This document shows, piece by piece, positions 1,799 through 46,542 of a DNA stretch of 64,000 bases. Both the position numbers and the translations under genes were made by a program. Where the stretch lies: positions 37,994-101,993 of the forward strand of contig JAISAB010000001.1 in assembly GCA_031266915.1 (NCBI GenBank), written 5' to 3'. Each line of letters starts with the position of its first letter. Position 1 is the stretch's first letter. The notes below the pieces were generated by a model. It saw nothing but the letters and a program-made list of their open reading frames with translations. It was not told the origin of the DNA and made no database searches. Source of the DNA: Rickettsiales bacterium. Its GTDB lineage: Bacteria; Pseudomonadota; Alphaproteobacteria; Rs-D84.

Positions 1799-4588
1799 AT
1801 GAGCGACAATAAACTTTCCCCCGTCATGCAGCAGTATGTTGATATGAAAGCCGAAAATCCGGATGCTTTGTTATTGTTTCGCCTGGGCGATTTTTACGAG
1901 GTTTTTTTCGAAGACGCCAAAACCGTCAGCGCGGCCATCGGAATTGTCCTGACACACCGCGGCGTCGACGCGAACGGCGACGATATTCCCATGTGCGGAA
2001 TTCCCTGGCATGCGGCGGACAACTATTTCGGCCGGCTGGTTCGTGACGGGTACAAGGTCGCGCTGGTCGAACAGATGGAGACACCCGCCCAGGCCAAGGC
2101 CGCCGGACGAAAATTTGTCACCCGCCAGGTCGTGCGCGTCCTGACGCCGGGCACGCTGACGGACGAGAATCTGCTGACGCCGAAGAATTCGAATTTTCTG
2201 GTCGCGGTCGCTCCCAGGAACAAGGAACAGGAACAAGGAACAGGGGTATTGTCACCCGTTCCTTGTTCCTTTTCCTCGTTCCTGATAGCCGGTTGCGATA
2301 TTTCGACCGGCGAATTCTTTATCGGCGAATCGGCGGCCATACTGGATGATTTGGTCCGCGTCAATCCGGCCGAAATTATTTATCCTGAAACAGACGCGGA
2401 AAACCCAGAAATCATGCGTCTGCGCGACACATTCAAAACGACGCCCGTTTATGAAAAGCTGTACAATCGCGCTGACATCGATCAAATAGTATTTAAGATA
2501 TTCGGACAGAACTTCGCCTCTTCGCGGCAGGTGGAAGAGCGCAGAGTGCAGAGCGCAGTTGAAAAATCGCAGGGCGATTTTTCATCGAATCACGAATCAC
2601 GAGTTACGAGTCACGCCGCCGCCGGTTTGTGTGGCAGCGCGACCTGCAATGGGGCGGTGGCGCTGCTGGCCGGGTATCTGTTCAATACCCAGCGCGACGC
2701 CAATATCGCGTTCCGCGCGCCGTACGCTTTCAAGGCCGGAACGCAATTGCTGGTTGACAGCGCGACTTGGAAAAGCTTGGAAATCGACAGCCCAATCAAC
2801 GACGGCGGAACATGTCTGGTCGACATTCTAGACAAGACCAAAACCGCTGCCGGGGCGCGGCGCCTGCGTTCATATCTGCGCGCGCTGTCGGGCGACATCG
2901 GCGAAATCCGCCGACGCCAGGAACACATCGGCCATCTGATTCTGAACCGCGACGTCATGGGCGGGCTGGAACGGATTCTATCCCGCGTGCCCGACGTCGG
3001 CCGCAGTCTGGCGCGATTGCTGTCGGGACGCGGCGCGCCGCGTGACCTGCGCGTGGCGGCCGATTTTATGGTCATGCTTGGCGATGCAAAATCCATGGGC
3101 GCCCGCTTGGATTCAGATTTGGCGGCCAAGTTCGCAAACATCGACACGCATGACGCGCTGGCGGGTGAATTGAAATTTGCGCTGAACGACGAACTGCCGA
3201 CTTTTTTCCGCGACGGCGGAATCATCCGCGCCGGATTCGACCCGTCGCTGGACAATATGAAAGAACTGGCGAACGGCGCCAAGGAAACAATCGCCGGCCT
3301 GCAGGCTCAGTACGCTGCTGCGACCGGTGTGGGCGCGCTGCGGATAAAATACAACAACATACTCGGGTATTTTATCGAGGTCCCCAGCCCCCGCGCCGAC
3401 GCGCTGATGAATCCTGAAAACGGATTTATTCATCGCCAGACAATGGCCGGCAACATGCGCTTTACCACGCCGCGTTTAATCGATTTGGACAATGATGTCC
3501 GCAGCGCCGCCGAAAAAGCCGGGGCAATCGAATCTGAAATCATTGCGAATCTGATTGAAAAAATCCGGGCGGCGGCCGACGATTTGCTGAACACGGCGGA
3601 ATTAATCGCGGACGCAGACGTGTGGCGCGCGCTGGCCGATGTGGCCGACGAATATTCATGGGTGCGCCCCGCCGTGACCGAATCCCGAGCGTTCGACGTG
3701 CGCGGCGGCCGCCATCCGGTTATCGAGGCCGTTCTGCGTTCCCGCGGCGACGCGTTCGTTAAAAACGACTGCGTCCTGGACGGGCGGCAAATCGCGCTGT
3801 TGACCGGTCCGAACATGGCCGGAAAATCCACCTATCTGCGCCAGAACGCGCTGATTGTCGTGCTGGCGCATCTGGGCGCGTTCGTGCCGGCAGAACGCGC
3901 CACAATCGGCGTCTGCGATCAGCTGTTCAGCCGCGTCGGCGCCAGCGACAACCTGGCCGCGGGCCAGTCAACGTTTATGGTCGAGATGACGGAAACGGCG
4001 AATATTCTGAACCGCGCGACGCGCCAGTCCTTTATCATTTTCGATGAAATCGGCCGCGGAACCGCGACATACGACGGCATGGCGATTGCCCAGGCCGTAC
4101 TGGAATTTTTGGATGACGTCAAACCGCGCACCTTGTTCGCGACACATTATCATGAACTGACCGCGCTGGTACCATCGTCAGAGTTCAAAGTTCAAGGTTC
4201 AAAGTTCAAATATTCCGGTGATGAACCCGGGATCACGATTTCGCAAGACGGTTCGGCTTGCGCCCATCTGAACTCTGTTAACTGTCTGACCATAGAAATT
4301 CGCGAGCATAACGGCGAGATTGTCTTTATGCATAAAATAATTCCCGGCGTGGCCAGCCGCTCCTATGGAATACACGTTGCAAAAATGGCCGGCATACCAA
4401 TATCGGTGATAAATCGCGCCGAAGACGTCCTGAACGCGCTAGAAACCCGGACCGACGCGCCTGCGCGAAAAACGCCGCCTGCGGTCAAAAAGGTCGAAGA
4501 TGTCGACATGATTGTCGACGAGCCGGGCGTAAAACCGCAAAAAGTCGCGGCGCCTGCAAACAAAACACAGCTTTCCCTGTTTGGATAA
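1799..4588 (+). CDS. mutS: DNA mismatch repair protein MutS (carries three in-frame repeat insertions)
   Basis: 929 aa; MQQYxxxK...LFRLGDFYE N-terminus, Walker A GPNMAGKST, TFMVEMTETA; insertions at 2213-2283, 2521-2615, 4181-4210. Confidence 0.9.
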   Translation: MSDNKLSPVMQQYVDMKAENPDALLLFRLGDFYEVFFEDAKTVSAAIGIVLTHRGVDANGDDIPMCGIPWHAADNYFGRLVRDGYKVALVEQMETPAQAKAAGRKFVTRQVVRVLTPGTLTDENLLTPKNSNFLVAVAPRNKEQEQGTGVLSPVPCSFSSFLIAGCDISTGEFFIGESAAILDDLVRVNPAEIIYPETDAENPEIMRLRDTFKTTPVYEKLYNRADIDQIVFKIFGQNFASSRQVEERRVQSAVEKSQGDFSSNHESRVTSHAAAGLCGSATCNGAVALLAGYLFNTQRDANIAFRAPYAFKAGTQLLVDSATWKSLEIDSPINDGGTCLVDILDKTKTAAGARRLRSYLRALSGDIGEIRRRQEHIGHLILNRDVMGGLERILSRVPDVGRSLARLLSGRGAPRDLRVAADFMVMLGDAKSMGARLDSDLAAKFANIDTHDALAGELKFALNDELPTFFRDGGIIRAGFDPSLDNMKELANGAKETIAGLQAQYAAATGVGALRIKYNNILGYFIEVPSPRADALMNPENGFIHRQTMAGNMRFTTPRLIDLDNDVRSAAEKAGAIESEIIANLIEKIRAAADDLLNTAELIADADVWRALADVADEYSWVRPAVTESRAFDVRGGRHPVIEAVLRSRGDAFVKNDCVLDGRQIALLTGPNMAGKSTYLRQNALIVVLAHLGAFVPAERATIGVCDQLFSRVGASDNLAAGQSTFMVEMTETANILNRATRQSFIIFDEIGRGTATYDGMAIAQAVLEFLDDVKPRTLFATHYHELTALVPSSEFKVQGSKFKYSGDEPGITISQDGSACAHLNSVNCLTIEIREHNGEIVFMHKIIPGVASRSYGIHVAKMAGIPISVINRAEDVLNALETRTDAPARKTPPAVKKVEDVDMIVDEPGVKPQKVAAPANKTQLSLFG

Positions 4589-4610
4589 ACATTGCGCAAA
4601 GGCATTTGAA

Positions 4611-5600
4611 ATGAACGGATGGATAATCTTGGACAAGCCGTCAGGCATGACCAGCCGCGCCGCGGGCGGGCGCGTCATGCGTATGTTTGGCGCCGAAACG
4701 TTCGGCCATATCGGAACCTTGGACCCGATGGCGTCGGGATTGCTGCCGATTGCGCTGGGCAATGCCACCAAGATGATTCCTTTTTTCGAGAGCGAAGAGC
4801 GTAGAGCGCAGAGCGAAGGTTCCGCCGCTTCGCGGCAGAGCGCAGGTCGCAAGTCGCAGGTAGAAGATGTTGATAATAACGAACCATCTACGCTCTGCGC
4901 TCTTCGCTCTTCGACCTCTAAAGAATATCTATTCAGCGTTCAGTTCGGATTCGAAACTGATACGCTGGATATTACCGGAACGGTTGTCAAGGAAACCAAT
5001 GTTGTCCCATTGCCGGCTCAGGTTATGGCAGCGTGCGCCGCACTGACCGGAACGATTTATCAAACGCCGCCGGCCTATTCCGCGGTGCATGTCGGCGGGC
5101 GGCGCGGCTATGAACTGGCGCGCGCGGGCAAAGAATTCGAAATTCCGCCACGCCCGGTTACCATCGACGCGCTGGAATTGCTGGACGCGGGCAGAAAATC
5201 CTGGCAATTCCGCGTGGTGTGCGCGCCCGGAACATACGTTCGCGCCATTGCCCGCGACATCGCCGCGATGTGCGATACGGTCGCAACCGTGGACATGATA
5301 CGGCGCCTGCGTACCAGCGGCCTGGATATAAAAGATGCGGTCGGGCTTGATTTTTTAGAAAATCTGTTTCATAATGGCGGGAACTTCGAAGATTATTTGA
5401 AGCCTGTGGATTTCGGACTGGGGGACATTCCGGTTCTGAATCTGAACGACGCGGACGCCGGTTTATATAAACAGGGCGGCTTTGTCGAAATTGCGGCGGC
5501 GGGCGAACCGGGATTGGTTCGGGTCTTTTCAAACGGGCGGTTCATCGGAATCGGAACGTTTGACGGCAACCTGTTGAAGCCGAAACGAACACTTAACTAA
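4611..5600 (+). CDS. truB: tRNA pseudouridine(55) synthase TruB with an in-frame 127-bp palindromic insertion
   Basis: [13 protein letters not shown] and [18 protein letters not shown] motifs; start moved to Met11 (4611) to avoid overlap with mutS. Confidence 0.85.
4789..4915. repeat. Family D palindromic element (gagcgaagagcgtagagcgcagagcg ... cgctctgcgctcttcgctcttcgac) inside truB
   Basis: Arms are reverse complements; copies at 27350-27485 (in queH) and 30911-30995 (fabG-mnmG spacer); fragments at 2521-2560 and 35581-35618. Confidence 0.75.
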
Positions 5601-5614
5601 ACAAAGGAAACACA

Positions 5615-5887
5615 ATGTCCATTGCAAAAGCAAAAAAGACTGAACTGATTAACGAATTCAAGACGACCGACGCCGACAACGGCGGCAGCGCGGCGTCCCA
5701 AGTCGCAGTATTGACCGAGCGCATTCGTAATTTGACCGAGCATATGAAGGCAAATCACAAGGACAACCATTCCAAGCGCGGCCTGCTGCTGATGGTCAAC
5801 CGCCGCAAGAAATTATTGGCCTATATCAAAAAGCGCAACGTGGCTGAATACGAAGACTTGATTAAGAAATTGGGTCTGAGAAAATAA
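5615..5887 (+). CDS. rpsO: 30S ribosomal protein S15
   Basis: 90 aa; [34 protein letters not shown] typical S15. Confidence 0.9.
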
Positions 5888-5913
5888 AAAACCGTCCAAT
5901 GGGCGGTTTTTTA
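5888..5913 (+). terminator. Rho-independent terminator after rpsO
   Basis: accgtccaatgggcggt hairpin followed by tttttt. Confidence 0.6.
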
Positions 5914-5920
5914 AAATAGC

Positions 5921-5962
5921 AATTGTTAATTAAGAATTAAAAAATAAGAATTAAGAATATTA
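5921..5962. repeat. Family B aattaagaattaa repeat
   Basis: aattgttaattaagaattaaaaaataagaattaagaat. Confidence 0.5.
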
Positions 5963-5973
5963 TTCCAGATTTT

Positions 5974-6250
5974 GTCATTGCGGGCGCAGCAAAGCAATCC
6001 AGTATAAATGGGTCTTTGGGGGCCGAATGACAGACTTCGTCTTGGAGAGACAACCCCCAAAGATAAAAACCGCGCTTAAATACAAAGGCGGTTGGAGGTT
6101 AAGAACTATCAAGTGAATAGTGCGGTGTATTCGGCAAGCCTTATTCCACCGGCCCTCCAACCGTAGTTGGAGCGTTTAACGTCAGCGCTGACGCACTTGT
6201 GGAGTTCTTAAACTCCGTGATGACAATTCGTCACCACGAAAAGTATTATA
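5974..6250. repeat. Family F ~250-bp structured dispersed element (ggcggttggaggtt ... ccctccaaccgNNggttggagcgtttaacgtcagcgctgacg)
   Basis: Three related copies (5974-6250, 37385-37560, 52411-52745) sharing gtcattgcg start, aaaaaccgcgc, ggcggttggaggtt, ccctccaacc and a gtcagcgctgac palindrome. Confidence 0.6.
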
Positions 6251-11037: not shown

Positions 11038-11610
11038 ATGAAAAACATAAAATCGCTGATATACGAAATCCGCGGCGCTCAGGTCATGCTTGACGGCGAC
11101 TTGGCCCAATTGTACGGAATGGAAGCAAAACGACTAAATGAATCAGTCAAACGCAACATCGGTAAATTCCCACCGGAATTTATGTTTCAAATTACATTGG
11201 GAGAATGGGATGACTTGAAGTCGCAAATTGCGACCTCAAGTTTGAATAACATTTCAATCTTGAAGTCACAAATTGTGACTTCAAGATGGGGAGGCCGTAG
11301 AAAGCCGCCTTTCGTCTTTACCGAACACGGTGTCGTCATGCTGGCGTCCGTTCTGAACAGTCCGGCCGCCATCCAGATGAATATAGCAATAGTCAAATCC
11401 TTTATAAGCATGCGCGACTACGTTTCCCAGCCGATTCACAAAAAATTGGAAGACTTGGAAAAAATTCTTATGCTGCATATCGACGACACAAGTTTGAATT
11501 TTGCCGGCCATTCCGATGCAATCAATGAGATTATTGACAAATTGAACAACATGATGGAACATCCGCGCCCAAAACGGCAAATAGGATTTAAACTGGAAAA
11601 TTCGAAATGA
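11038..11610 (+). CDS. ORF6N-domain protein (phage/plasmid-type DNA-binding domain) inserted in the efflux operon
   Basis: IRGAQVMLDGDLAQLYGMEAKRLNESVKRNIGKFPPEFMFQ...LKSQIVTSRWGGRRKPPFVFTEHGVVMLASVL matches the ORF6N consensus; AT-rich; stop and start overlap the neighbours. Confidence 0.6.
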   Translation: MKNIKSLIYEIRGAQVMLDGDLAQLYGMEAKRLNESVKRNIGKFPPEFMFQITLGEWDDLKSQIATSSLNNISILKSQIVTSRWGGRRKPPFVFTEHGVVMLASVLNSPAAIQMNIAIVKSFISMRDYVSQPIHKKLEDLEKILMLHIDDTSLNFAGHSDAINEIIDKLNNMMEHPRPKRQIGFKLENSK

Positions 11611-12326
11611 AAGAGCCGAAAAATATTATCTCAATGGATAAAATCTGCAAAAGCTTTCCCATCGAAATGGGCGGCCAGCAGCAGGTCTTGTTCGACATAA
11701 CCTTCGATGTCCAGGCCGGCGAGTTCGTCGCCATCATGGGCCCGTCGGGCAGCGGAAAATCCACCTGTATGAATATCATCGGGGCGCTGGACACGCCGAC
11801 TTCCGGCGTATACAGGCTGTACGGCGACGACGTCACCCACATGTCGTCCGACGGGCTGGCGTTGATGCGAAACGAGCATATCGGGTTCGTCTTTCAGAAT
11901 TTCAACCTGCTGTCGAAACGCAACGTGCTGGACAACGTCATGCTGCCGCTGATGTATCGCGGCCTGTCGACGGACGAGCGCGTCGAACGCGCGCGCGCCA
12001 TGCTGCGGCGCGTGGGCTTGGAAAACTTCGAGACCTATCTGCCGCCGCAGCTGTCGGGCGGCATGCGCCAGCGCGTGGCCATCGCGCGCGCCTTGGCCGG
12101 CGACCCAAAGCTGATTTTGGCGGACGAGCCGACCGGCGCCCTGGACAGCAAGATGGGCAACGAAATCCTGCAATTCTTCAAGAAATTGAATAAAGAGATG
12201 GGCATTACCATCGTCATGATTACCCATGAATTCGACATCGCGAAATACGCCGGGCGCCTGATTCACATCCGCGACGGCCGCATAAACTATGACGGCGCCA
12301 TACCAAAGGACGATAGGAACCTGTAG
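11607..12326 (+). CDS. MacB/LolD-type ABC transporter ATP-binding protein
   Basis: Walker A GPSGSGKST, signature LSGGMRQRVAIARAL, Walker B LILADEPTGALD. Confidence 0.85.
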   Translation: MKEPKNIISMDKICKSFPIEMGGQQQVLFDITFDVQAGEFVAIMGPSGSGKSTCMNIIGALDTPTSGVYRLYGDDVTHMSSDGLALMRNEHIGFVFQNFNLLSKRNVLDNVMLPLMYRGLSTDERVERARAMLRRVGLENFETYLPPQLSGGMRQRVAIARALAGDPKLILADEPTGALDSKMGNEILQFFKKLNKEMGITIVMITHEFDIAKYAGRLIHIRDGRINYDGAIPKDDRNL

Positions 12327-12758
12327 GAGATAGTAGATACTAGATACGAGATAGGAGATATGCAACAATGTCCAAAGACAGCATTGCGCTTGAAAAAAGC
12401 AAAAAGTTTTCAGTCCGGATAATAAGATTCAGCAAATATTTGGGCGACAAACGGCGTGAATATGTTATGTCTAAACAGATATTGAGGTCCGGCACAGGAA
12501 TAAGCGCAAATCTATCTGAAGCAATTTATGCCGTTAGCAGAAGCGATTTTTTATCTAAACTGTATATCGCGCTAAAGGAATGTTCGGAAACGTTGCATTG
12601 GTTGGAATTGCTAAACGAATCAGGATACATAACCGATTTGCAATATACGAGTATGCATTCTGATTGTGAAGAAATACGCAAAATGTTGTCATCCGCAACA
12701 AAAACCGTACGGGAAGTGTGATTGGTATCTTGTATCTCCTATCTACTATCTCGTATCT
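12325..12758 (+). mobile_element. Candidate miniature insertion: four-helix-bundle gene flanked by imperfect inverted repeats (ggagatagtagatactagatacgagataggagata / tatcttgtatctcctatctactatctcgtatct)
   Basis: Inverted gagata/gtagata-unit repeats at 12325-12360 and 12725-12758 bracket an AT-rich gene that splits the ABC ATPase from its permease. Confidence 0.35.
12368..12721 (+). CDS. Four-helix-bundle protein (23S rRNA intervening-sequence protein family)
   Basis: KQILRSGTGISANLSEAIYAVSRSDFLSKLYIALKECSETLHWLELL matches the family core (RSGTSIGANI.EA..A.S..DFI.K..IALKEA.ET.YWL). Confidence 0.65.
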   Translation: MSKDSIALEKSKKFSVRIIRFSKYLGDKRREYVMSKQILRSGTGISANLSEAIYAVSRSDFLSKLYIALKECSETLHWLELLNESGYITDLQYTSMHSDCEEIRKMLSSATKTVREV

Positions 12759-12775
12759 AAAAAACGGAGTTTTTT

Positions 12776-13993
12776 ATGACTTTCAACGACATTTTAAAGG
12801 AATCCTGGCTGTCCATCAGCGGGAACAAGATTCGCAGCTTCCTGACCGTCCTGGGCATCATTATAGGCGTCATGGCGGTGGTGATTATGGTCGCCGTCGG
12901 CGAAACGGTGGAAAAGCAAATCAGCGACCAATTCTCGTCGCTGGGGACCAACACCATCGTGATTCGCGCCGGCGCGGCCCAGACCGGCGGCGTGCGAACC
13001 GGAAACCGCCAGACGCTGACCATTCAAGACGCCGAGGTCATCGCCCGACTGCCCGACGTCGCGGCGACCAGCCCGGTTCAATCCAGCGCGGGACAGATTA
13101 TTTACGGAAACAAGAACTGGTCCTCGTCGATTAACGGTGTTTATCCGGATTACGCCAACGTCCAGAATATTGAAATCGAATTTGGAACCATATTCGACCA
13201 GGCGGCGGTCCGGAACGCATCCACCTATGCCGTCATCGGCCCCAAGACCGCGCGCGAATTGGAAATGCCCGATAATCCCGTGGGCGAGGTTATACGCGTC
13301 CAAAACACGCCCTTTGTCATCATAGGCGTTACCAAAGAGCGCGGCGACAGCGCCATGGGTTCCCAGGACGACATGCTGATTATCCCGATTACAACGCTGA
13401 AAAAGCGCCTGCAGGGCAGCCGTTTCCCCAACGCTGTCAATATGATTGCACTGAAGCTGTATGCCGAATCCGACAATATTCTGACAACGGAACTTATCAC
13501 ATCGCTGCTGCGCGAACGGCACAAGCTGAAAGATTCCGACGAAGACGACTTTCAGATTATGGACATGAAACAGGTTCTGGAAACCATGAACACCATCACG
13601 GGATATATGAAGCTGCTGCTGATTGCGATTGCAGGCGTGTCGCTGCTGGTGGGTTCCATTGGAATTATGAATATGATGTTGGTCTCGGTGGCCGAGCGCA
13701 CGCGCGAAATCGGCATACGCAAGGCCATCGGCGCGCGCGAAAAGCATATCATTATCCAATTTCTGTCCGAATCCATTATGATTTCTTTTCTGGGCTCGAT
13801 GGTGGGCATGCTGCTGGGCATAGGATTGTCCCAGGGCGTGGGGCGTCTGGTTCTGCATTACAGCGTTCCGTTCAGCGCCTGGCCGGTTGTACTGTCGTTC
13901 AGCGTGGCGGTCGTGGTCGGCCTGGCGTCGGGCGTGACGCCCGCGATGAAGGCCGCGAAATTGAACCCCATCGACAGCCTGCGACATGAGTAA
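12776..13993 (+). CDS. MacB-type ABC transporter permease (FtsX-like)
   Basis: 405 aa; N-terminal TM, large periplasmic domain, C-terminal FtsX-like 3-TM with IGIRKAIGA motif. Confidence 0.85.
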   Translation: MTFNDILKESWLSISGNKIRSFLTVLGIIIGVMAVVIMVAVGETVEKQISDQFSSLGTNTIVIRAGAAQTGGVRTGNRQTLTIQDAEVIARLPDVAATSPVQSSAGQIIYGNKNWSSSINGVYPDYANVQNIEIEFGTIFDQAAVRNASTYAVIGPKTARELEMPDNPVGEVIRVQNTPFVIIGVTKERGDSAMGSQDDMLIIPITTLKKRLQGSRFPNAVNMIALKLYAESDNILTTELITSLLRERHKLKDSDEDDFQIMDMKQVLETMNTITGYMKLLLIAIAGVSLLVGSIGIMNMMLVSVAERTREIGIRKAIGAREKHIIIQFLSESIMISFLGSMVGMLLGIGLSQGVGRLVLHYSVPFSAWPVVLSFSVAVVVGLASGVTPAMKAAKLNPIDSLRHE

Positions 13994-14000
13994 AACACTA

Positions 14001-14102
14001 GCGGATAGTCAATAGTCATTGGTCTATAGTCAATAGTTAATAAAGCCGTCGGCTTCGCCGACACATTCACTACCAACTAACGACTATAGACTACTGACTA
14101 TG
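14001..14102. repeat. Family A element with central terminator-like hairpin (gccgtcggcttcgccgac)
   Basis: atagtcaatagtcattggtctatagtcaatagtt ... aactaacgactatagactactgactat. Confidence 0.6.
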
Positions 14103-14353
14103 TAAATAACCTCTGGATTTATCTGGCAATTGCGGTATAATGTTCGTCGACAGGCGCGTTGCCTGTTATGGAATTAACAATCCATCACCAAAAGGGTCTT
14201 GAACAGACCATAAACCTTCACCCAAAAGGGGTGGAGGGCGGCGTTATAAGGCTTGCCGAAGGCGTTGCACTATACTTTTGGATAGTTTGTTAATCTCCAT
14301 CCCACCTTGATTTTTAAAGGTGGTTTTCTTTTTGAAAAAAAAAGGGGGATTCG

Positions 14354-14584
14354 ATGGGACGGCAAATCACAGATGACGAAATTCAATTCAACAAAGCGCT
14401 GGGACTGGTGATACGTGTTGCCAGAATAAAGCTTGGCGTGTCGCAAAAGATACTGGGAGAAGTCGTTGGCGTATCCCTGCAGCAGATTCAAAAGTACGAA
14501 GCCGGGGAAGACGGCGTCTCTGTCGCCCGGTTTAACAAAATGGCGACTTATCTGGAAATCCCGTTTAGAATATTTGAAAAATAG
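14354..14584 (+). CDS. XRE-family helix-turn-helix transcriptional regulator
   Basis: 76 aa; LGVSQKILGEVVGVSLQQIQKYEAG is an HTH_3 signature. Confidence 0.6.
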   Translation: MGRQITDDEIQFNKALGLVIRVARIKLGVSQKILGEVVGVSLQQIQKYEAGEDGVSVARFNKMATYLEIPFRIFEK

Positions 14585-14692
14585 CGATCAGCAAACATCA
14601 AATATGCGTTTATTTAAGATTTATGATTTACGGATTTAAGATTTAGTTCAAGTGACAGGAATATATCTTTTTGGTCCCAAAACCTCAAGACT

Positions 14693-14765
14693 CGTCATTC
14701 CCGCTTGGACCACCCACGAAAAACAGTCGTTTTTCGCGGGGCCTGGTGGCGGGAATCCAATGTAT
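14693..14765. repeat. Family H 68-bp hairpin element
   Basis: cccgcttggaccacccacgaaaaacagtcgtttttcgcggggcctggtggcgggaa; near-identical copy, reverse-complemented, at 28086-28152. Confidence 0.7.
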
Positions 14766-15238
14766 TCAAGCTGTGAACAATGCCCGTATGATGAATACAT
14801 TGGATACCGGCCTTCGCCGGGGCTAAAGGCACCCGAGGTGACAATTTTTATTGTCATCGCTTCGCGATGCTTTACGTACCTGCGCTAGGCGTGACAAAAG
14901 TTTGTTTTAATTTAAGGCACATCCCTGTCGGTTGAGCGATAAACTATACGCTATCTGCCATATGCTATTTTTTCCTATTTTTCCATTGTGCTGAAAATTC
15001 GCACGCGCTATAGTTGTCTTGTCGACGGGTGTTCCGTCGATGGGGTCTGATAACCCTTTATTGTGCGTCGTGAATAATCACCGCGCTTTTGCGCCGTTTT
15101 TATTTCGACGAAAAACAACTCCTGACTCGGTCAGGAGGGCGCGATATATCTGAATAAGCGCGCAATTCACAATATTGTTATCAGCCTCCTGACCGCCTAT
15201 TTTCGGCGGTTTTTACTTAACTGCAACAGGAGGATATT

Positions 15239-15460
15239 ATGGGGAAAATTTTGCTGCTTTTGATAATCGCCGCTTTCGCGTCCATTGGCTCGTCGCCATC
15301 GCATGCGGTACAATCATACCAAAGTATAGCGGCATGCACCAATGCGGGCGGGGTGGTTTATGACGGCTGCATGTGCAAGGTCGCAAAAACCACCACGAAC
15401 TACGGCGTCATAACCACCAGCACGGAATGCGGTACCATAGCCGGTCTGGCCTGCATCTAA
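15239..15460 (+). CDS. Small cysteine-rich secreted protein
   Basis: Signal peptide MGKILLLLIIAAFASIGSSPSHA; six Cys in 50 residues; RBS AGGAGG. Confidence 0.4.
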   Translation: MGKILLLLIIAAFASIGSSPSHAVQSYQSIAACTNAGGVVYDGCMCKVAKTTTNYGVITTSTECGTIAGLACI

Positions 15461-15473
15461 AAAAGGATTAAAA

Positions 15474-15857
15474 ATGTCTAGATTTGTCTCTGTTTTTTCC
15501 GGGCTGTCGTTGCTGTCTGGGGCGGCGGCCAGCGCGCCGCCGCCGACTTCGCTTGGCGACGAATGCGACACGAAATCATATACCTGCGCGAACGGATATT
15601 ACGGCACGCCGACCGATAGTTCTACCGGATGTACGCTATGCCCCGAGCACGCTACATGCGCCGGCACGGGCAACACAACATTCATATGTATTTCAGGATA
15701 TTATAAAATTGGCGCCACGTGTGCGCCCTGCCCCGATGGCGGCACATCAATTGCGGGCGCGCGGGCGATAACCGATTGTTATCTGCCCACTGGAACATCA
15801 TTTGAAGATGCGTACGGAACTTTTGAATTGACCGACAAGTGTTATTATAGCAATTAA
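15474..15857 (+). CDS. Cysteine-rich secreted protein (eukaryote-like CxxCP / GYY repeats)
   Basis: Signal peptide; CTLCPEHATCAGTGNTTFICISGYYKIGATCAPCPDGG; followed by a terminator. Confidence 0.5.
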   Translation: MSRFVSVFSGLSLLSGAAASAPPPTSLGDECDTKSYTCANGYYGTPTDSSTGCTLCPEHATCAGTGNTTFICISGYYKIGATCAPCPDGGTSIAGARAITDCYLPTGTSFEDAYGTFELTDKCYYSN

Positions 15858-15884
15858 AAAACCGGCAAAAAAGCCGGTTTTTTA
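15858..15884 (+). terminator. Rho-independent terminator
   Basis: accggcaaaaaagccggt hairpin followed by tttttt. Confidence 0.6.
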
Positions 15885-15887
15885 ATA

Positions 15888-15982
15888 AATAGTCGTTAGT
15901 CTATAGTCATTAGTGAATAGTGCTTAGTTTATAGTGCATAGTTAATAGTTCACTAATCACTATGCACTATTCACTAGTGATT
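15888..15982. repeat. Family A element
   Basis: atagtcgttagtctatagtcattagtgaatagtgcttagtttatagtgcatag...cactattcactagtgat. Confidence 0.55.
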
Positions 15983-16029
15983 AAAAAAACCATCATCCCC
16001 CAAGTTTTTGTAACGCTGACGCTAACAAA

Positions 16030-16330
16030 AACTTTCCCCCTTTATCAAGGGGGACAAGTGCTAAACCAAGGGGTAAAAGAGCTGAGCCAAATGGGATAAG
16101 TGCCAAACCGAGGGGGGAAAAGAGCTGAACAAATTGGATAAGAGCCGAATCAAGGAAGACAAGTGCCAAGTTTTGTGCCAGTGCGCTGTTCTGGGCTGTT
16201 GCCCCTTTCATTTCACGCTTGTTCCCAGCAACCTGGCGCCAGCCACTCTTGTTTCATACTTGTTCCTAGAACTTGGCGCTGGCCCCTCTTGTTAAAGAGG
16301 GGTGAAAATCTTGGCAACTTGTTGCCATAG
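16030..16330. repeat. Degenerate ~38-nt tandem units (acaagtgctaaaccaagggg...) followed by an inverted counterpart
   Basis: Three tandem units around 16045-16170, then cttgttcc...cttggcgctggcccctcttgtt on the other arm; non-coding. Confidence 0.4.
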
Positions 16331-16344
16331 ATTTTCGGGGAGAT

Positions 16345-16470
16345 TAATAGTTAGTCAACAGTCATTGGTCTATAGTCAGTAGTGTATAGCAAATAGCACA
16401 TACAATTAGGTGGTTATTTCAGATTTATGATTTAAGATATAAGATTTAGGCGACATTAAATCTTAAATTT
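16345..16470. repeat. Family A unit followed by family I gatttatgatttaagat repeats
   Basis: tagtcaacagtcattggtctatagtcagtagtg; agatttatgatttaagatataagatttag...taaatcttaaattt. Confidence 0.5.
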
Positions 16471-16537
16471 TCCATTTGCTATTTGATATTTGCTAATTGA
16501 TATTTAAAAAAAGCCGGCCTTTTTGACGATTTTTGCA

Positions 16538-17413: not shown

Positions 17414-17456
17414 TGTCGCTCCTTTTTTTTTCGTGACACGCGATACGTAATACGAA

Positions 17457-17828
17457 CTATTTTGTTATACTTTTCAATAATCCCGTCAGCATTTGATTTA
17501 TTCTTTCTATATCGCTTGTCAGTGTTTCAAACATGTTTTTATTTATAAAATTCAAATCCGACGCCAGCATAATCTGGCATTTTAATTCTGCGGCTGAACC
17601 TCTTGCAATACCAATAAACTGCTTTAACTCTCCGGTTGTAATCCTCGCGCCGCCCTCTGATAAATTAGAACAAACTGAAACCGCCGCACGGCGCATCTGA
17701 CTTGTTAATCCGAATTTTTCATCCTGCGGGAATTCTTTTGTAATTTCATAAATAACCTTTACAAAATTCCTAGATATTTTAAACACATCAAGTTCTTCTA
17801 TCGATTTCATTTTAGCCCCACGTATCAC
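17457..17828 (-). CDS. Four-helix-bundle protein (23S rRNA IVS protein family), second copy, between parA and parB
   Basis: LDVFKISRNFVKVIYEITKEFPQDEKFGLTSQMRRAAVSVCSNLSEGGAR...FIGIARGSAAELKCQIMLA closely matches the family consensus; AT-rich; start may be Met 17810. Confidence 0.65.
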   Translation of the reverse strand: MIRGAKMKSIEELDVFKISRNFVKVIYEITKEFPQDEKFGLTSQMRRAAVSVCSNLSEGGARITTGELKQFIGIARGSAAELKCQIMLASDLNFINKNMFETLTSDIERINQMLTGLLKSITK

Positions 17829-18586
17829 GCTTTCTCAACTATCTCCGTCGCGACGCGCAGGTACGCCTGGGCGCCGGCGGAGCCGAAATCATAGAATAAC
17901 GCCGGCTTGCCGTGGCTGGGGGCCTCGGAAACGCGGACGTTGCGCGGCACGACCGTTTTAAAGACCTTGTCGCCAAAGGTGTTGCGAACGTCTTCCTCGA
18001 CCGCCTTGGTCAATCCATAGCGTCGATCATACATCGTCAGCAAAACGCCCAGGATTTCCAAATTCGGATTCCAATTTTTGCGGATTTCCGAAATCGTATT
18101 GACCAGATGCTGGACGCCTTCCAGCGCAAAGAACTCGCATTGCAGCGGCACGACAATCGAATCGGCCGTCGTCAGCGCGTTCAGCGTCAGATAGCCCAGC
18201 GCCGGCGGACAGTCCAACAATATGTAATCGTAATGGCCGCGCACCGGTTCCAACGCGTCGCGTAGACGGTATTCGCGGTTGTCCATATCCAGCAGCTCGG
18301 CCTCGGCACCCGACAAGGCCGGACTGGCCGGCAGGATGTGCATGCCCGGAACGGCGGTGGACAGAATATTGTCGGCCGCGCTGGCGGTTCCCATGATAAC
18401 GCCGTACACGCTTTGACGATGGGCGGCGCGGACAAACCCCAGACCTGTTCCGGCGTTGCCCTGCGGGTCCAGGTCTATCAGCAGGACGCGCTTTTTGATG
18501 GCGGCCAGGGACGCCCCGATATTGATGGCCGTCGTAGTCTTGCCGACGCCGCCCTTTTGGTTGGCAAACGCGATAATCTTTGTCAT
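17825..18586 (-). CDS. parA: Chromosome partitioning ATPase ParA
   Basis: KIIAFANQKGGVGKTTTAINIGASLA deviant Walker A; 253 aa. Confidence 0.9.
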   Translation of the reverse strand: MTKIIAFANQKGGVGKTTTAINIGASLAAIKKRVLLIDLDPQGNAGTGLGFVRAAHRQSVYGVIMGTASAADNILSTAVPGMHILPASPALSGAEAELLDMDNREYRLRDALEPVRGHYDYILLDCPPALGYLTLNALTTADSIVVPLQCEFFALEGVQHLVNTISEIRKNWNPNLEILGVLLTMYDRRYGLTKAVEEDVRNTFGDKVFKTVVPRNVRVSEAPSHGKPALFYDFGSAGAQAYLRVATEIVEKA

Positions 18587-32792: not shown

Positions 32793-33130
32793 CCATTTTT
32801 GTCCGAACGAAGCGAGGAATACAAAAATGAGTGCCCGCCGGAGCCTGAATTTCGGCGTAGCGCGAAGTGCGAAGTGCGGAGACAAATGGCGAAGGCTTGG
32901 CTGGCCAAGTTTGGAAAGCATCCGCCAAGAAGTGCAATCCGTCAGTAAATTTTTGTGGAAATCGTCAGAAACTTGTACTAGGATTATCGCCGATGGCAAC
33001 ACAAACGGTTATTATTATAGAATAAACAGGCACGCGCTTTGGCGGATGCCCGGGTGCAATGCGCCCGTTTTTTTATCCCGCCCGCGGGGCCGCGAAACGG
33101 GCGGAAAAAGAGTTAAAAAGGAAATACACG

Positions 33131-36181
<3,051 letters not shown>

Positions 36182-37666: not shown

Positions 37667-40072
37667 TCACGTCCGCAGTTTTGCGTCGCAACTTTTTTCA
37701 ACCAGCGCGATAACCGAATTCTGAATTTCCATCAATTCCGCATCCGCGATATTGCCCAGCGGCTGCAGCACGATTTCAAACGCTATTGATTTTTTTCCGT
37801 CCGGCAAATCGAATATGTCGAACACATTCGTCTCGATAATGCGGTCGTCCGCGCCACGCGCGATTTCCGCCAATTCGGCCGGCTCGACATTATTCGCCGC
37901 GATAAACGCAAAATCGCGCGTAATCAGCGGGAATTCCGCCAACTCAATTTTGTCCAGCGCCGGGGCGTCCGCCGTCCATGGCGAATAAGACGCCAAAGAC
38001 GACACATCGTCGACCAATCCCAGCGCGACATTCGTCTTGATGCCGAACTTTTTCGCAACTGACGGGTGCAATTCAGCGAACACGGCGACCGTTTTGTTAT
38101 CCAAAATCAATTTTCCGGCACGATACGGATGCGCCCACAATGGCGGATTGTCGTCGTTTTCCGCGACTGCGCCCGGAAACAGGGACATCAAATCGTCGCG
38201 AATATCATAGACAGACGCATCGCGGCCGTGCTTTACGCCGATTTTTCCGCCCAGGATGCCCGTGCGCACGACTATCAATTGGTCGTGCTGCCACCCGGGG
38301 ACCGGACCGTCGAACACAGCCGCCAGTTCGAACAGAGACAAATTCGAACGGCGGAATCTGTCGTTGCCGGCAACAACGTCCAGCATCGATTGAACCAAAG
38401 AGTTCCGCGCCGTATCGAACGTATCGATAATCGGATTCAAGACGCGGACGCTTTCCTTGTACGACAGGATTTTTTCCTTTTTCGAATCTCCGAAGCCGTA
38501 ATTCATGCATTCGTAATATCCCATCGCCGCCAGCTGTTTTTTCACGGACGGGGCGCGCGCGGTGAAATCTATTTTGGCAGCGTTTTCATCCCTGACGATA
38601 TTGTCGTATCCGTATAATCTTATCAGCTCCGAGACAATGTTCTCGGGAATCGCCACGTCCACGCGCGCGGGCCTGGGGGTAATGGTCCATATGTCGTTAT
38701 TTTCTTCGACGACAAACCCCAGGGCTTCCAGAATCCGTTTCTGCATCGCCGCGTCCAATTCGATTCCGGTCTTTTTCTTGAACAGCGCCGGAGTATATTC
38801 TATGCGGCGCGGTTCCATAATTTTCAGCCATTCGGCGCCGCTTATATTTTTCATCGAATCCGGCGTTTCAGACATAAACGTCAGCTTCGGATTTTTTTCG
38901 TCCCAAACATAACGCGGCGTCATGGCGATTCCGCCGCACGCGTCCGTGATTATTTTCACGGCCTGCAGAATGCCTTGGGGCGCGATTGTCGGGTCTATGC
39001 CGCGCTCGTACCTGTAAGACGCGTCCGTGCTTATTCCGATTCGTTTGGCGGTCCTGCGCACGGTCACCGGGTCGAAATATGCGCTTTCCAGTAAAATATT
39101 TTTCGTCGCATCGGTCGTCATGCCACGCGCGCCGCCGATAACGCCTGCCAGCGCCAGAATCCCGGCCGCGTCCGCAATCACCAAATCGGTTTCTACTAAT
39201 TCGTGCTCGGCGCCGAACAGGTCGGTGAATTTCTCGCCCCGCTTCGCGTTGCGAACGATAATATCGCCGTGAATTTCGTCGGCGTCAAAGCAATGCATAG
39301 GCTGCCCCAGATCATAGCAGATATAATTAGTCGCGTCGATTGGAGCGTTCTTTGGGTTGATTCCGATGGCCGCCAGGCGCGCGGCAATCTTCGGATTCGA
39401 CGGCGCCATCTTGATGTTCTTAATCTCGCACAGATAATAAACCGGACACGCGTCATAGTTTTCAACAACCGCCCGGCGCGCGCCGTCTTTGAATTCGCCG
39501 GCATAATTGTCGTACCTGTCGATAAATTCGCCGATTCCGGCCGCGGCCAAATCACGCGCGATGCCGCGCACCGCCAGATAGTCCGGACGGTTCGGCGTAA
39601 TGCCGGCGTCAAAAATGGATAATGGACAATGGATGATGGATGATGGAATCTGCCCCAATTTCTCAACCTTTTCATCCAGTTCGATAATGCCGTCGTGGTC
39701 GTCGTTTATGCCCAGTTCCCGGCCCGAACACATCATGCCGTCGGATATAACGCCGCGGATTTTGCCCGATTTGATTTCCATATTGCCAATCTTACATCCG
39801 GGGACCGCCAGCGCGGACACCAATCCGACGCGGACGTTTGGCGCGCCGCACACGACCGTGCGCAATGCGCCGGTGCCGTCGTCGACCCGCAGCACATGCA
39901 GGTGGTCGCTGTCGGGATGCTTTTCGCATTCGACAATCCTGGCCGCAACCGGATGCGCGGTTTCGATTAATTCTTCGACCTCCAGACCGATTCGGGTCAG
40001 GGTGTCGGCAATCTCGGCCGGCGTCGCATTGGTGTCCAAATAATCTTTCAACCAATCATAAGTCCATTTCAT
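37667..40072 (-). CDS. pheT: Phenylalanyl-tRNA synthetase beta subunit
   Basis: 801 aa; N-terminal tRNA-binding domain, B3/B4, B5, C-terminal FDX-ACB-like domain order. Confidence 0.9.
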   Translation of the reverse strand: MKWTYDWLKDYLDTNATPAEIADTLTRIGLEVEELIETAHPVAARIVECEKHPDSDHLHVLRVDDGTGALRTVVCGAPNVRVGLVSALAVPGCKIGNMEIKSGKIRGVISDGMMCSGRELGINDDHDGIIELDEKVEKLGQIPSSIIHCPLSIFDAGITPNRPDYLAVRGIARDLAAAGIGEFIDRYDNYAGEFKDGARRAVVENYDACPVYYLCEIKNIKMAPSNPKIAARLAAIGINPKNAPIDATNYICYDLGQPMHCFDADEIHGDIIVRNAKRGEKFTDLFGAEHELVETDLVIADAAGILALAGVIGGARGMTTDATKNILLESAYFDPVTVRRTAKRIGISTDASYRYERGIDPTIAPQGILQAVKIITDACGGIAMTPRYVWDEKNPKLTFMSETPDSMKNISGAEWLKIMEPRRIEYTPALFKKKTGIELDAAMQKRILEALGFVVEENNDIWTITPRPARVDVAIPENIVSELIRLYGYDNIVRDENAAKIDFTARAPSVKKQLAAMGYYECMNYGFGDSKKEKILSYKESVRVLNPIIDTFDTARNSLVQSMLDVVAGNDRFRRSNLSLFELAAVFDGPVPGWQHDQLIVVRTGILGGKIGVKHGRDASVYDIRDDLMSLFPGAVAENDDNPPLWAHPYRAGKLILDNKTVAVFAELHPSVAKKFGIKTNVALGLVDDVSSLASYSPWTADAPALDKIELAEFPLITRDFAFIAANNVEPAELAEIARGADDRIIETNVFDIFDLPDGKKSIAFEIVLQPLGNIADAELMEIQNSVIALVEKSCDAKLRT

Positions 40073-40093
40073 TGTAAAAAACTCCGTTTTTTT

Positions 40094-41839: not shown

Positions 41840-41861
41840 TTTAAAGCTCCTTGCCGTAGCC

Positions 41862-41935
41862 GTGATTCGTAATCGGTAATCGGTAATCCGAATTTTGCGG
41901 TCGGATTACGGATTACGGATTACCAGTCACGAAAT
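41862..41935. repeat. Family C long palindromic form (cgtgattcgtaatcggtaatcgg ... cggattacggattacggattac)
   Basis: Arms reverse-complementary around ttttgcggtc. Confidence 0.55.
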
Positions 41936-42077: not shown

Positions 42078-42905
42078 TTGGCGATGAACCAGAAAAAAAT
42101 ATCTTCCAAAGTGCTGTCTTATGCGAAATCGGCGCTGGCCGCGGCTGTTTTGCCGGTCTTTTTGATATATGTCATGATTGACAAGCCCGATTACAAGATT
42201 ATCGGCGCCATGTCGCACATTGTCCTGCCGGCGGCGAACTGGGTCGGCGATGTCGTGTCGTGGCCGATACGGGCCGTGGCCAGCGGCGTGGCGGGAATAC
42301 GCGAGCTGTCCAATCTGCGCGGCGAGAACGAAGAACTGCGCGCCAAATTGGACCAGGCCCTGCGCATGCGCAACGAATGCGGCGTGGCAATTTCGGAAAA
42401 CCAAAGGCTGGCCCGAGAGCTGGACATGGTCCGCGCGTCGCCGCAAAAGGCGGTCGCTGCGCTGGTTTCCTATAACAACGACGCGTTTCACCACAGCACG
42501 TTTTTCATAGACAAGGGCGCGCGCGCCGGCATCGAGCCCGGCATGGCCGTCGTTTCGTTTGACGGGCGGCTGGCGGGCATCGTCATCGACGCGGGGCCGA
42601 CCTTTGCCAAGGTCCGCAGCCTGACGGATTCGAAATCGAACATACCCGTCCGCGTCGCCGGGTCCGAGGTCTACGGTTTTCTGCAGGGCAGCGGTTCCGG
42701 CGACCCGACGATGGGATTTTTCAGCGACCCTGAATTCCAGCCAACCCGGGGCTTGAAACTGGTCACCAGCAACATCCGCGGCGTGCTGCCCGACGGAATA
42801 ATCGTGGGCGAGATGTCCAATTCGACGGACGCGTCCGTTCTGCGCCCGACGCGCATGTCCAGCGTTATGGTTCTGCAGTTCGACGGCAAGGACAAATACA
42901 AATAG
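42078..42905 (+). CDS. mreC: Rod shape-determining protein MreC
   Basis: N-terminal TM, coiled coil LRGENEELRAKLDQAL, beta-rich C-terminal domain; followed by mreD-mrdA-rodA. Confidence 0.8.
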   Translation: MAMNQKKISSKVLSYAKSALAAAVLPVFLIYVMIDKPDYKIIGAMSHIVLPAANWVGDVVSWPIRAVASGVAGIRELSNLRGENEELRAKLDQALRMRNECGVAISENQRLARELDMVRASPQKAVAALVSYNNDAFHHSTFFIDKGARAGIEPGMAVVSFDGRLAGIVIDAGPTFAKVRSLTDSKSNIPVRVAGSEVYGFLQGSGSGDPTMGFFSDPEFQPTRGLKLVTSNIRGVLPDGIIVGEMSNSTDASVLRPTRMSSVMVLQFDGKDKYK

Positions 42906-43005
42906 TGAATAGTGATTAGTGCATAGTTTATAGTGACTAGCGGGCTAGCTACAACACTGCAAACTAAACACTAAGCACTATAAACTAAACACTATAAACT
43001 AATGG
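42903..43005. repeat. Family A element
   Basis: atagtgaatagtgattagtgcatagtttatagtgactag...cactataaactaaacactataaactaatgg. Confidence 0.55.
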
Positions 43006-45210: not shown

Positions 45211-45285
45211 TTGGTAATTGGTAATCCGTAATCGGTAATTCGAACATTGCGGTCGGATTACCGATTACGAATCACGAGTCACGGC
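45208..45285. repeat. Family C long palindromic form
   Basis: gtgattggtaattggtaatccgtaatcggtaattcgaacattgcggtcggattaccgattacgaatcacgagtcacg. Confidence 0.55.
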
Positions 45286-45307
45286 GAAAATACGGAGTAT
45301 TTTTGCA

Positions 45308-46453: not shown

Positions 46454-46467
46454 CCTTTTGCTGAAAG
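46433..46467. other. Perfect 15-bp-arm stem-loop spanning the rodA stop (ctttcagcaaaaggc / gccttttgctgaaag)
   Basis: Read directly; no T-run follows. Confidence 0.4.
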
Positions 46468-46542
46468 CAATTAAGAATTAATAATTAAGAATTACATTTG
46501 CAAATTTAATTATTAATTCTTAACTCTTAATTCTTAATTAAA
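46468..46542. repeat. Family B aattaagaattaa palindromic element
   Basis: aattaagaattaataattaagaattacatttgcaaatttaattattaattcttaactcttaattcttaatt. Confidence 0.6.

Follow-up and report, generated by a model that had tools for sequence, protein, structure and literature searches.

A probable intervening-sequence-type element with inverted heptamer arms between the ATPase and permease genes of a macAB-type operon

To our knowledge, the intervening sequences (IVSs) of rRNA genes have been called selfish since the early 1990s, and we know of no account of how they move or of what role their open reading frame (ORF) plays. The IVS of Coxiella burnetii, described as a "selfish genetic element", is 428-444 nt long and lies in helix 45; the inverted repeats at its ends pair as a 28-bp stem and its GC content is below that of the genome (Warrier et al., 2016, PMC4990558). 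Two to three tandem GACAGAT heptamers and a degenerate one precede the start of its S23p gene, their number varying among strains, and RNase III cuts the IVS in vitro where the first of these repeats begins (Warrier et al., 2016). As cited in that paper, the S23p protein of Xanthomonas is a homopentameric toroid (Lin et al., 2006), and the IVS ORF was proposed to encode a mobility component (Ralph and McClelland, 1993). A comparable arrangement occurs in a 64,000-nt stretch of a Rickettsiales bacterium genome (GCA_031266915.1, contig JAISAB010000001.1, positions 37,994-101,993 of the forward strand; hereafter the window). Here a gene of the four-helix-bundle (S23p) family, 4HB1, stands between the ATPase and permease genes of a macAB-type operon, enclosed by inverted arrays of 7-nt units. 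This 4HB1 element is probably an IVS-type selfish element lodged in the spacer of two co-transcribed protein genes. Its parts and neighbours, in window coordinates, are the following:

11607-12326: ABC ATPase gene, upstream of 4HB1 (profile match, PF00005)
12324-12360, + strand: left arm, 5.3 units of 7 nt (TAGGAGA TAGTAGA TACTAGA TACGAGA TAGGAGA TA)
12368-12721, + strand: 4HB1, four-helix-bundle gene (S23p / 23S rRNA-IVS protein family), 117 aa, GC 0.39
12723-12759, + strand: right arm, 4.9 units (GTATCTT GTATCTC CTATCTA CTATCTC GTATCTA), reverse complement of the left arm
12760-12775, + strand: AAAAACGGAGTTTTTT, a 16-mer candidate module with a GGAG ribosome-binding site, abutting the permease ATG (12776)
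12776-13993: MacB_PCD+FtsX permease gene, downstream of 4HB1 (profile match)

The 4HB1 protein matches PF05635 ("23S rRNA-intervening sequence protein"; E=5.6e-27, 94.5 bits, cut-off 33.8) and TIGR02436 ("four helix bundle protein"; E=1.1e-29, 102.8 bits, cut-off 24). Its best structural relative is PDB 2RLD (E=7e-32), an uncharacterised protein with five chains in one entry. The ORF is intact and every family-invariant residue is present. The GC content of the gene, 0.39, compares with 0.57 and 0.56 in the flanking ATPase and permease genes. The closest protein homologues are at most 68% identical, and the named ones belong to Ruminococcus, Oscillospiraceae, Clostridia and Endomicrobium, not to alphaproteobacteria, which fits transfer within gut communities. 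No Rfam family matches the element, and there is no rRNA match anywhere in the window. PADLOC defence profiles gave zero matches for the 4HB1 protein or for that of 4HB2, a second gene of the family in the window, and nothing in the 4HB1 element resembles a promoter or terminator consensus above chance level.

An inverted-repeat search finds the arms in six registers that are 82-95% complementary (82-89% for arms of 33-37 nt); the several registers reflect the tandem 7-nt units of which both arms consist. Tandem Repeats Finder reports 5.3 copies of TAGGAGA on the left and 4.9 copies of GTATCTC on the right, corresponding to a unit (G/T)AGATA(G/C). Gapped local alignment of the two arms gives a score of 40, and shuffled sequences reach at most 28. 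In the minimum-free-energy fold of 12316-12768 the arms form the closing stem (-122 kcal/mol, z = -3.6, a value that no shuffle equals), and an RNA duplex of left and right arms is predicted at -37.2 kcal/mol. From arm end to arm end the unit measures 436 nt. A preliminary description of this DNA, made from the letters alone, had drawn an AT-rich four-helix-bundle gene within imperfect inverted repeats, between an ABC ATPase and its permease; the profile matches on all three genes, the GC content and the shuffle comparison agree with it.

The arms also carry translation signals. The first triplet of the left arm, TAG, is the stop codon of the ATPase gene, where the closest relatives use TAA. 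Stop codons can be read in all three frames of this arm, because the TAG-containing 7-nt unit shifts frame from unit to unit. The left array ends 7 nt upstream of the 4HB1 ATG and contains an AGGAGA Shine-Dalgarno sequence (12352-12357) located 10 nt before that ATG. On the other side, AAAAACGGAGTTTTTT recurs as an identical 16-mer in two further places, namely before parB, following the four-helix-bundle element of a related genome (L014:13241-13256, - strand), and at 40076-40091 (- strand) in the window, after a gene-less hairpin and before a gene starting at 40072 (- strand). A variant with 2 mismatches stands at 45288-45303 (+ strand), after the hairpin at 45203-45283. With 0.14 matches expected by chance in the window, the recurring 16-mer may be an element-borne ribosome-binding module set directly before the ATG of the next gene.

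The junction was compared with that of relatives by a permease scan with one genome per species, which covers 80 loci of gut alphaproteobacterial metagenome-assembled genomes (many of them 'Candidatus Enterousia') at 76-92% identity. Of the 79 loci holding both genes, 76 have the ATPase stop and the permease ATG separated by -4 to +28 nt, against 449 nt in the window, and 4HB1 is missing from the junction in 78 of the 79. Judged by these empty sites, the whole stop-to-ATG spacer has been replaced in the window. The comparison shows the 4HB1 element to be an insertion splitting the ATPase and permease genes, as the empty-site check suggested in the preliminary description anticipated.

The two closest relatives, L013 and L015, have long gaps of their own (858 and 716 nt) with another gene inside. 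This gene (L013:2173-2892 and L015:5392-6069) is low in GC, encodes 239 and 225 aa, is 37% identical between the two loci and is unrelated to 4HB1. Its start overlaps the ATPase stop as TAATG, it is accompanied by no heptamer arrays, and it has no Pfam or PADLOC match. The presence of a different gene at this site means that colonisation of the junction took place repeatedly. Past the inserted gene of L013 there is a duplication of ~30 nt from the start region of the permease (~2910-2945 and 3025-3060).

These observations bear on the view that 4HB1 is a vertically inherited small gene of benefit to the host, such as a transporter regulator or an RNA chaperone. An intact ORF with its invariant residues, preceded at 10 nt by a Shine-Dalgarno sequence, is what such a gene would display. 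The preliminary description had set the same alternative against insertion, in the form of one gene at one position in all relatives and without terminal inverted repeats; instead, 78 of 79 relatives lack 4HB1 at this junction and L013 and L015 hold an unrelated gene there. The foreign GC content, nearest relatives in another phylum and homologues in functionally unrelated operons make a vertically inherited host gene most improbable.

Another gene of the same operon is an insertion of a different kind. An ORF6N-domain gene (11038-11610, 190 aa, GC 0.43) lies between the membrane-fusion and ATPase genes, starting 4 nt past the upstream stop codon and overlapping the ATPase start. It lacks heptamer arms, and PADLOC assigns it to the candidate defence family PDC-S05 (E=8e-49); tblastn detects no copy at the loci of the 80 relatives. 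The operon thus holds two junction insertions, independent of each other.

Because the window is rich in period-7 arrays, the association between arms and gene needed testing in other organisms. A metagenomic survey collected 80 loci at 47-60% identity to 4HB1, with 64 distinct genes for which both flanks are available. A lag-7 array lies within 110 nt upstream in 45 of these 64 genes, downstream in 45 and on both sides in 33; lags 4-6, 8, 10 and 12 give zero, and lags 9 and 11 one each. Array density reaches 6.1 per kb in the flanks, and the rest of these contigs has 0.28 per kb. For 55 of the 64 genes, complementarity between the two flanks exceeds that of every shuffle. The 7-nt words vary among elements (TTAGGAG, GAGTGGA, CAGTTGA, GCGCAAT, ACGAAGG and others) and complementarity within each element is kept. 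The median unit length is 456 nt.

In the closest metagenomic relative (L109, 60% identity) the arms are of the AGATA/TATCT type seen in the window, with 29 of 36 positions identical in the right arm; unlike the window locus, this element sits upstream of a purD-like gene. Similarly, a gene 76% identical to 4HB2 (L173) lies downstream of tolB in another genome, within perfect 31-nt arms of the CGTGATA type. Since homologous arms and genes are found together at unrelated loci, arms and gene travel as a unit. The subfamily of 4HB2 has the same inverted-array design in L014, L173, L174 and L176, and its sites include lepB-rnc, mraY-ftsW, cas2-cas1 and the position after tolB; sites of the 4HB1 subfamily include a type III mod-res junction and the position before purD. 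Of 60 surveyed cases, 52 have the gene in the orientation of its upstream neighbour (median distance 45 nt); for the downstream neighbour this holds in only 27 of 53. Two surveyed genes (L143 and L145) are inside bacterial large-subunit rRNA genes (Rfam, 2333 and 642 bits) and carry inverted heptamer arms. Their flanks (...ACCGAAG... and ...GGGGTAGGGGAGCGTTG...) correspond to the helix-45 region of the E. coli sequence. The kinship with 23S rRNA IVSs claimed in the preliminary description is thus seen both in the protein family and in these two loci. In terms of sequence, the survey shows inverted period-7 arms to be a hallmark of the four-helix-bundle gene family across phyla and subfamilies.

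Two side observations concern the same loci. Gene junctions are where these genes usually sit, and the junction-type sites (L003-L012, L174-L184, L102, L107, L119 and L128) resemble those of the window in that the paired genes are cognate or conserved. One contig (L002, GCA_965344665.1) has two four-helix-bundle genes 2.5 kb apart (2950-3371 and 5802-6213), each with its own inverted heptamer arms (GAGTGGA and GAGTTAA), and more arrays in the neighbouring intergenic regions.

The preliminary description also proposed that the genes are cargo of a mobile unit targeting operon junctions. Mobility of such a unit agrees with L109, L173 and the many junction sites; targeting is an association and not a demonstrated preference, given that the same type of element also occurs in 23S rRNA and that gene-less arrays are also found inside ORFs.

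Period-7 arrays are by no means confined to four-helix-bundle genes. A strict detector finds 19 arrays at lag 7 in the window and at most one at each other lag from 4 to 12; looser thresholds raise the number to 35-40, mostly with no gene between or beside them, and the widest estimate is about 35-60. Their size range is narrow, about five units overall (medians 4.7-4.9), with a median of 4.7 and a range of 4-5.5 in the window. The vocabulary is limited and includes AGAGCGC, CGAATCA, AATTAAG, GTTCAAA, ATTTAAG, ATAGTGA, ATAGTCA and GTAATCG. Many arrays form inverted pairs, that is, gene-less hairpins with loops of 7-67 nt. Those at 41858-41923 and 45203-45283 belong to a single hairpin family, and their loop is conserved. 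Examples of arrays and hairpins are:

1382-1441
1694-1782
2216-2283
4789-4913
15888-15976
41858-41923
42901-43002
45203-45283
46466-46539

Within mutS (1799-4588), three arrays or hairpins lie in frame (2216-2283, 2534-2615 and 4178-4210), adding 16, 35 and 28 residues relative to six related genomes; the protein is ~95 aa longer, and when it is aligned with the six relatives and with E. coli MutS the alignment is interrupted precisely where the arrays lie. The ORFs at 4581-5600, 33059-36181, 37667-40072 and 48818-50449 may also hold in-frame arrays. Since the greedy ORF caller assigns too much of the window to coding sequence (0.89), in-gene array counts are reliable only for mutS, which was checked against homologues.

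This abundance is what favours a different explanation of the arms, in which they are generic heptamer hairpins (similar to repetitive extragenic palindromic (REP) sequences or to MITEs, miniature transposable elements with inverted repeats, or else regulatory) and a four-helix-bundle gene landed in, or prefers, the loop. Some 35-40 period-7 arrays in the window against no more than one at any other period, many gene-less hairpins with partly repeated families and conserved loops, the in-frame arrays of mutS and an operon of parAB type bracketed by inverted arrays would all follow from it. As a class, heptamer arrays far outnumber four-helix-bundle genes genome-wide. In other organisms, however, arrays are ~22 times denser beside such a gene than elsewhere in the same contigs, homologous genes keep homologous arms at unrelated loci, and the same design is present in 23S rRNA. 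Furthermore, the ATPase-permease junctions of 76 relatives are all free of gene-less hairpins. Arms of this generic kind, with the gene as a late arrival, are therefore an unlikely explanation of the 4HB1 element.

Array density in larger samples suggests a link of another sort. Away from four-helix-bundle genes there are 0.53 arrays per kb in the window, 0.49 in L014 and 0.21 in metagenomic contigs bearing a four-helix-bundle gene, compared to 0.024 per kb in 79 related loci without one (~20 times fewer than in the window). Contigs with the gene thus have ~9 times more distant arrays (0.21 vs 0.024 per kb), a ratio in which phylogeny is uncontrolled across taxa. Among 81 related loci only two have a four-helix-bundle gene, and both belong to the three array-rich loci (hypergeometric P ~0.001). 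One locus, L041, is array-rich and has no such gene in its 21 kb, which counts against these genes driving the arrays.

Other parts of the window have their own peculiarities. The region between the permease and parB genes (14000-16530) is 2.5 kb long in the window vs ~0.3 kb in L013; it contains a small helix-turn-helix gene (14354-14584), two cysteine-rich ORFs (15239-15857; VSP-like match, weak), repeat arrays with units of 21, 40 and 42 nt (16046-16293) and numerous arrays of heptamers.

Beyond this region, parB, 4HB2 and parA form an operon with these features:

17457-17810, - strand: 4HB2, four-helix-bundle gene between parA and parB, 117 aa from ATG 17810
17819-17829, - strand: upstream arm remnant of 4HB2, CGTGATACGTG, containing the parA stop TGA (17825-17827)
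17432-17459, - strand: degenerate downstream arm of 4HB2 (TAGTTCG TATTACG TATCGCG TGTCACG), followed by AAAAAAAAAGGAGCGACA and the parB ATG at 17413

The 4HB2 protein matches PF05635 (E=9e-36, 122.7 bits) and TIGR02436 (111.3 bits), and its start is more likely ATG 17810 than 17828. BLASTP finds no similarity between 4HB1 and 4HB2, so that 4HB2 belongs to a different subfamily and is not a second copy. The preliminary description, which placed a second gene of the same family at 17457-17828, was right about the family and the parA-parB position; kinship exists only at the profile level, and the start has moved. In contrast to the arms of 4HB1, those of 4HB2 are short remnants. They are not significant alone (alignment score 15 vs a shuffle maximum of 16), and the downstream arm agrees with the perfect L173 arm at 18 of 23 positions. 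Of 49 genomes (the window and 48 relatives), 47 have parA and parB -8 to +14 nt apart, a contiguity that the preliminary description had expected; the gap amounts to 411 nt in the window and 429 nt in L014. The L014 gene is 55% identical to 4HB2 and lies within clear inverted arrays of CGTGAAC units. In both genomes parA takes its stop codon from the arm, so that ParA lacks a few of the residues present at empty sites: it ends in TEIVE-KA* in the window and SEIVNR* in L014, compared to TEIVEGINSE* at the empty site of L015. The parA-parB copy in the window is a decayed element of a different subfamily.

A single ancestral insertion common to the window and L014 is doubtful, with the four-helix-bundle proteins 55% identical against 90% for ParA. 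It is further weakened by arm words that differ and by insertion points that differ by a few nt, which makes independent insertion or replacement about as likely as common descent.

The parB-4HB2-parA operon as a whole is enclosed by two nested pairs of inverted arrays (16343-16383/18706-18746 and 16467-16489/18663-18685), which score 42 and 31 against a shuffle maximum of 24. Their arrangement suggests long-range pairing of the transcript ends or a composite element.

Homology of the family to Avd, noted in PMC10053308, raises the possibility that 4HB genes are remnants or satellites of a diversity-generating retroelement (DGR), and 4HB2 does match bAvd profiles weakly. Its scores fall below the curated cut-offs (PF22296, 34.5 bits, cut-off 40; NF033474, E=1.5e-7, 31.7 bits, cut-off 80), and 4HB1 has no Avd match. 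The neighbours are ATPase and permease genes or parA and parB, with no reverse transcriptase beside either gene, no template/variable repeat pair is seen, and heptamer arms are the sole repeats. A retroelement origin is the least credible of the explanations considered here.

A further array shares the word of the 4HB1 right arm:

56333-56365, + strand: solo array with the TATCT(C/T)G word, 80 nt after a VirB4-like gene

The window contains no partner arm or gene for it. The preceding region includes an 802-aa ORF (53846-56254), recognised as a VirB4/TrbE-like ATPase by eye only, with GTTCAAA and TATCTCG arrays after it. At 57062-60061 stands a Type ISP restriction-modification gene of 999 aa (Type_ISP_C, E=8e-67), and the two genes may mark a region of mobility or defence functions.

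Terminal inverted repeats and empty sites are also properties of classical DNA transposons, and gene-less hairpins resemble the non-autonomous derivatives of such elements. A transposon or MITE would be moved by a transposase acting in trans, cut and pasted with target duplication. The boundaries of the 4HB1 element lack a flanking direct repeat (TG/TAGGAGA on the left, GTATCTA/AAAAAC on the right), profile searches detect no transposase domain in the 4HB1 ORF, and no other copy with the same ends exists in the 64 kb besides the solo array. Moreover, arm sequences diverge among elements and only the 7-nt period is kept, unlike the ends recognised by a specific transposase. A classical transposon is thus very unlikely.

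Several of these results also weigh against the 4HB1 element as a mobile IVS-type unit. The target-site duplication proposed as a check by the preliminary description is absent (flanks ...AACCTG/TAGGAGA and GTATCTA/AAAAACGG). A second full copy is missing from the window, where tblastn with both four-helix-bundle proteins matched only themselves; the search for further copies, also envisaged there, succeeded elsewhere, in L109 with the same arm word, and in the window gave only the solo array. Of 35 window arrays, 33 have no adjacent four-helix-bundle gene, and arrays evidently exist and spread without one. Two homologues in phage records (35-47% identity, unannotated) are without arrays, although these were deemed uninformative. 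Arm mismatches in 53 elements, read on the sense strand, comprise 24 G:U against 37 A:C pairs (P=0.12); with G:U not favoured, the mismatch test does not support pairing specifically in sense RNA, and the counts fit equally well with pairing in the DNA or with one arm having recently been copied from its partner. Finally, S23p is probably not even translated in Coxiella (Warrier et al., 2016).

On balance, an IVS-type selfish element in the operon spacer remains the probable reading, and the empty sites together with a gene-with-arms unit at other loci agree with the miniature selfish insertion between cognate genes that the preliminary description had seen. Its anatomy comprises a left heptamer array, an S23p gene, an inverted right array and a short A-rich/GGAG/T-rich putative ribosome-binding module. 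Having no promoter or terminator of its own, the element would be transcribed by read-through of the macAB-type operon. The left arm, as read from its sequence, ends upstream translation in any frame and supplies the Shine-Dalgarno sequence of 4HB1. The module past the right arm, whose motif recurs, may provide the permease with a ribosome-binding site, rendering the insertion non-polar. By analogy with rRNA IVSs, the arms could pair in the transcript into a ~33-bp stem that RNase III would cut, freeing the 4HB RNA. A clean upstream stop, a gene of its own and a re-armed downstream gene would explain why the element is tolerated between cognate genes. Comparison among loci shows that arms and gene move together between loci and phyla. 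With no target duplication and no recognisable transposase, the pentameric four-helix-bundle protein would be, speculatively, the sole element-encoded candidate for a mobility or maintenance factor.

A broader idea is that S23p pentamers act in trans as the mobility or maintenance factor of heptamer-array elements across phyla, the ORF-bearing ones being autonomous and the gene-less ones non-autonomous. The match between about five units per array and a pentameric protein is a hint in this direction, as are the ~9-fold higher density of distant arrays and the co-occurrence at P ~0.001 given above. We regard this broader idea as a tentative conjecture, possible but rather doubtful; a protein that drives or maintains every array is an appealing, unproven notion.

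The searched literature treats IVSs as a peculiarity of rRNA genes, and the window and survey place the same unit in ordinary operons. Insertion into an operon looks built to be harmless, with stops in all frames at the entry, a ribosome-binding site at the exit and no terminator. By splitting operons, such insertions break a contiguity on which annotation pipelines and operon predictors rely, and in-frame arrays lengthen conserved proteins such as MutS. The survey also ties a very common "hypothetical" family to an unexplained excess of bacterial heptanucleotide repeats. If S23p were indeed the array factor, rRNA IVSs and the function of the widespread "four helix bundle protein" genes would have one origin, and the same origin would explain the over-representation of heptanucleotide repeats such as STRR, GGGAATC and TAACTGA. 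The arms, the protein and RNase III offer concrete experimental handles.

Among described systems, the heptamer repeats are the nearest counterpart of the arrays. They include the short tandemly repeated repetitive (STRR) sequences of heterocystous cyanobacteria, the arrays of GGGAATC in Xanthomonas and of GGGGA(T/C)T in Nostoc (Rehm et al., 2015, PMC4692102), and the TAACTGA repeats of Beggiatoaceae, Cyanobacteria and Bacteroidetes (MacGregor, 2015, PMC4679880). Like the window arrays, they are short, imperfect 7-nt arrays, mostly intergenic and often before start codons; they often form convergent inverted pairs (70-75 in Xanthomonas), and their patchy distribution suggests horizontal spread. 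They use other words, and several genomes have one dominant word, compared to about ten in the window. The four-helix-bundle (S23p) family is abundant in cyanobacteria and Bacteroidetes. S23p genes are documented in Xanthomonas (Warrier et al., 2016), and neither PMC4692102 nor PMC4679880 mentions four-helix-bundle genes or rRNA intervening sequences.

Two further systems are similar in part. The Rickettsia palindromic elements (RPEs) that Ogata and colleagues are said to have described in 2000 are reportedly short, palindromic selfish repeats located in intergenic regions and in frame within conserved genes. The gene-less hairpins in frame inside mutS, in a host labelled Rickettsiales, recall them; RPEs differ in being conserved sequences of ~100-150 nt with no ORF and no 7-nt arrays, and the likeness is one of description. 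The DGR accessory protein Avd (PDB 4DWL), like S23p, is a four-helix bundle that assembles into a pentamer, with a homologous fold. Avd systems differ in that the window has no reverse transcriptase or template/variable repeats beside its 4HB genes, whose matches to Avd profiles are missing or below cut-off.

In the searched literature, no paper links free-standing genes of the PF05635 family to heptamer arrays or operon junctions. It is already known that ORF-bearing IVSs are selfish 23S rRNA elements with inverted ends, and heptamers have been noted in Coxiella. Undescribed in the searchable literature are an IVS-type unit at operon junctions of protein genes, the wide occurrence of inverted period-7 arms in different subfamilies and phyla, the design with stops in all frames and a ribosome-binding module, and the association with gene-less heptamer hairpins, including in-frame ones.

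The closest match overall is the ORF-bearing 23S rRNA IVS of Coxiella, Leptospira and Brucella, which like the 4HB1 element encodes a PF05635/TIGR02436 protein. The two are of the same size class (428-444 nt in Coxiella, 436 nt here) and share a terminal stem of ~30 bp enclosing the ORF, tandem heptamers directly before the ORF start, a GC content below that of the host and the sense orientation in the host transcript. Cleavage by RNase III in vitro belongs to the Coxiella IVS, whereas the 4HB1 element is known from a predicted stem. Unlike rRNA IVSs, which occupy helix 25 or 45, the 4HB1 element sits between two protein-coding genes of an operon, giving the upstream gene its stop codon and the downstream gene a putative ribosome-binding module.

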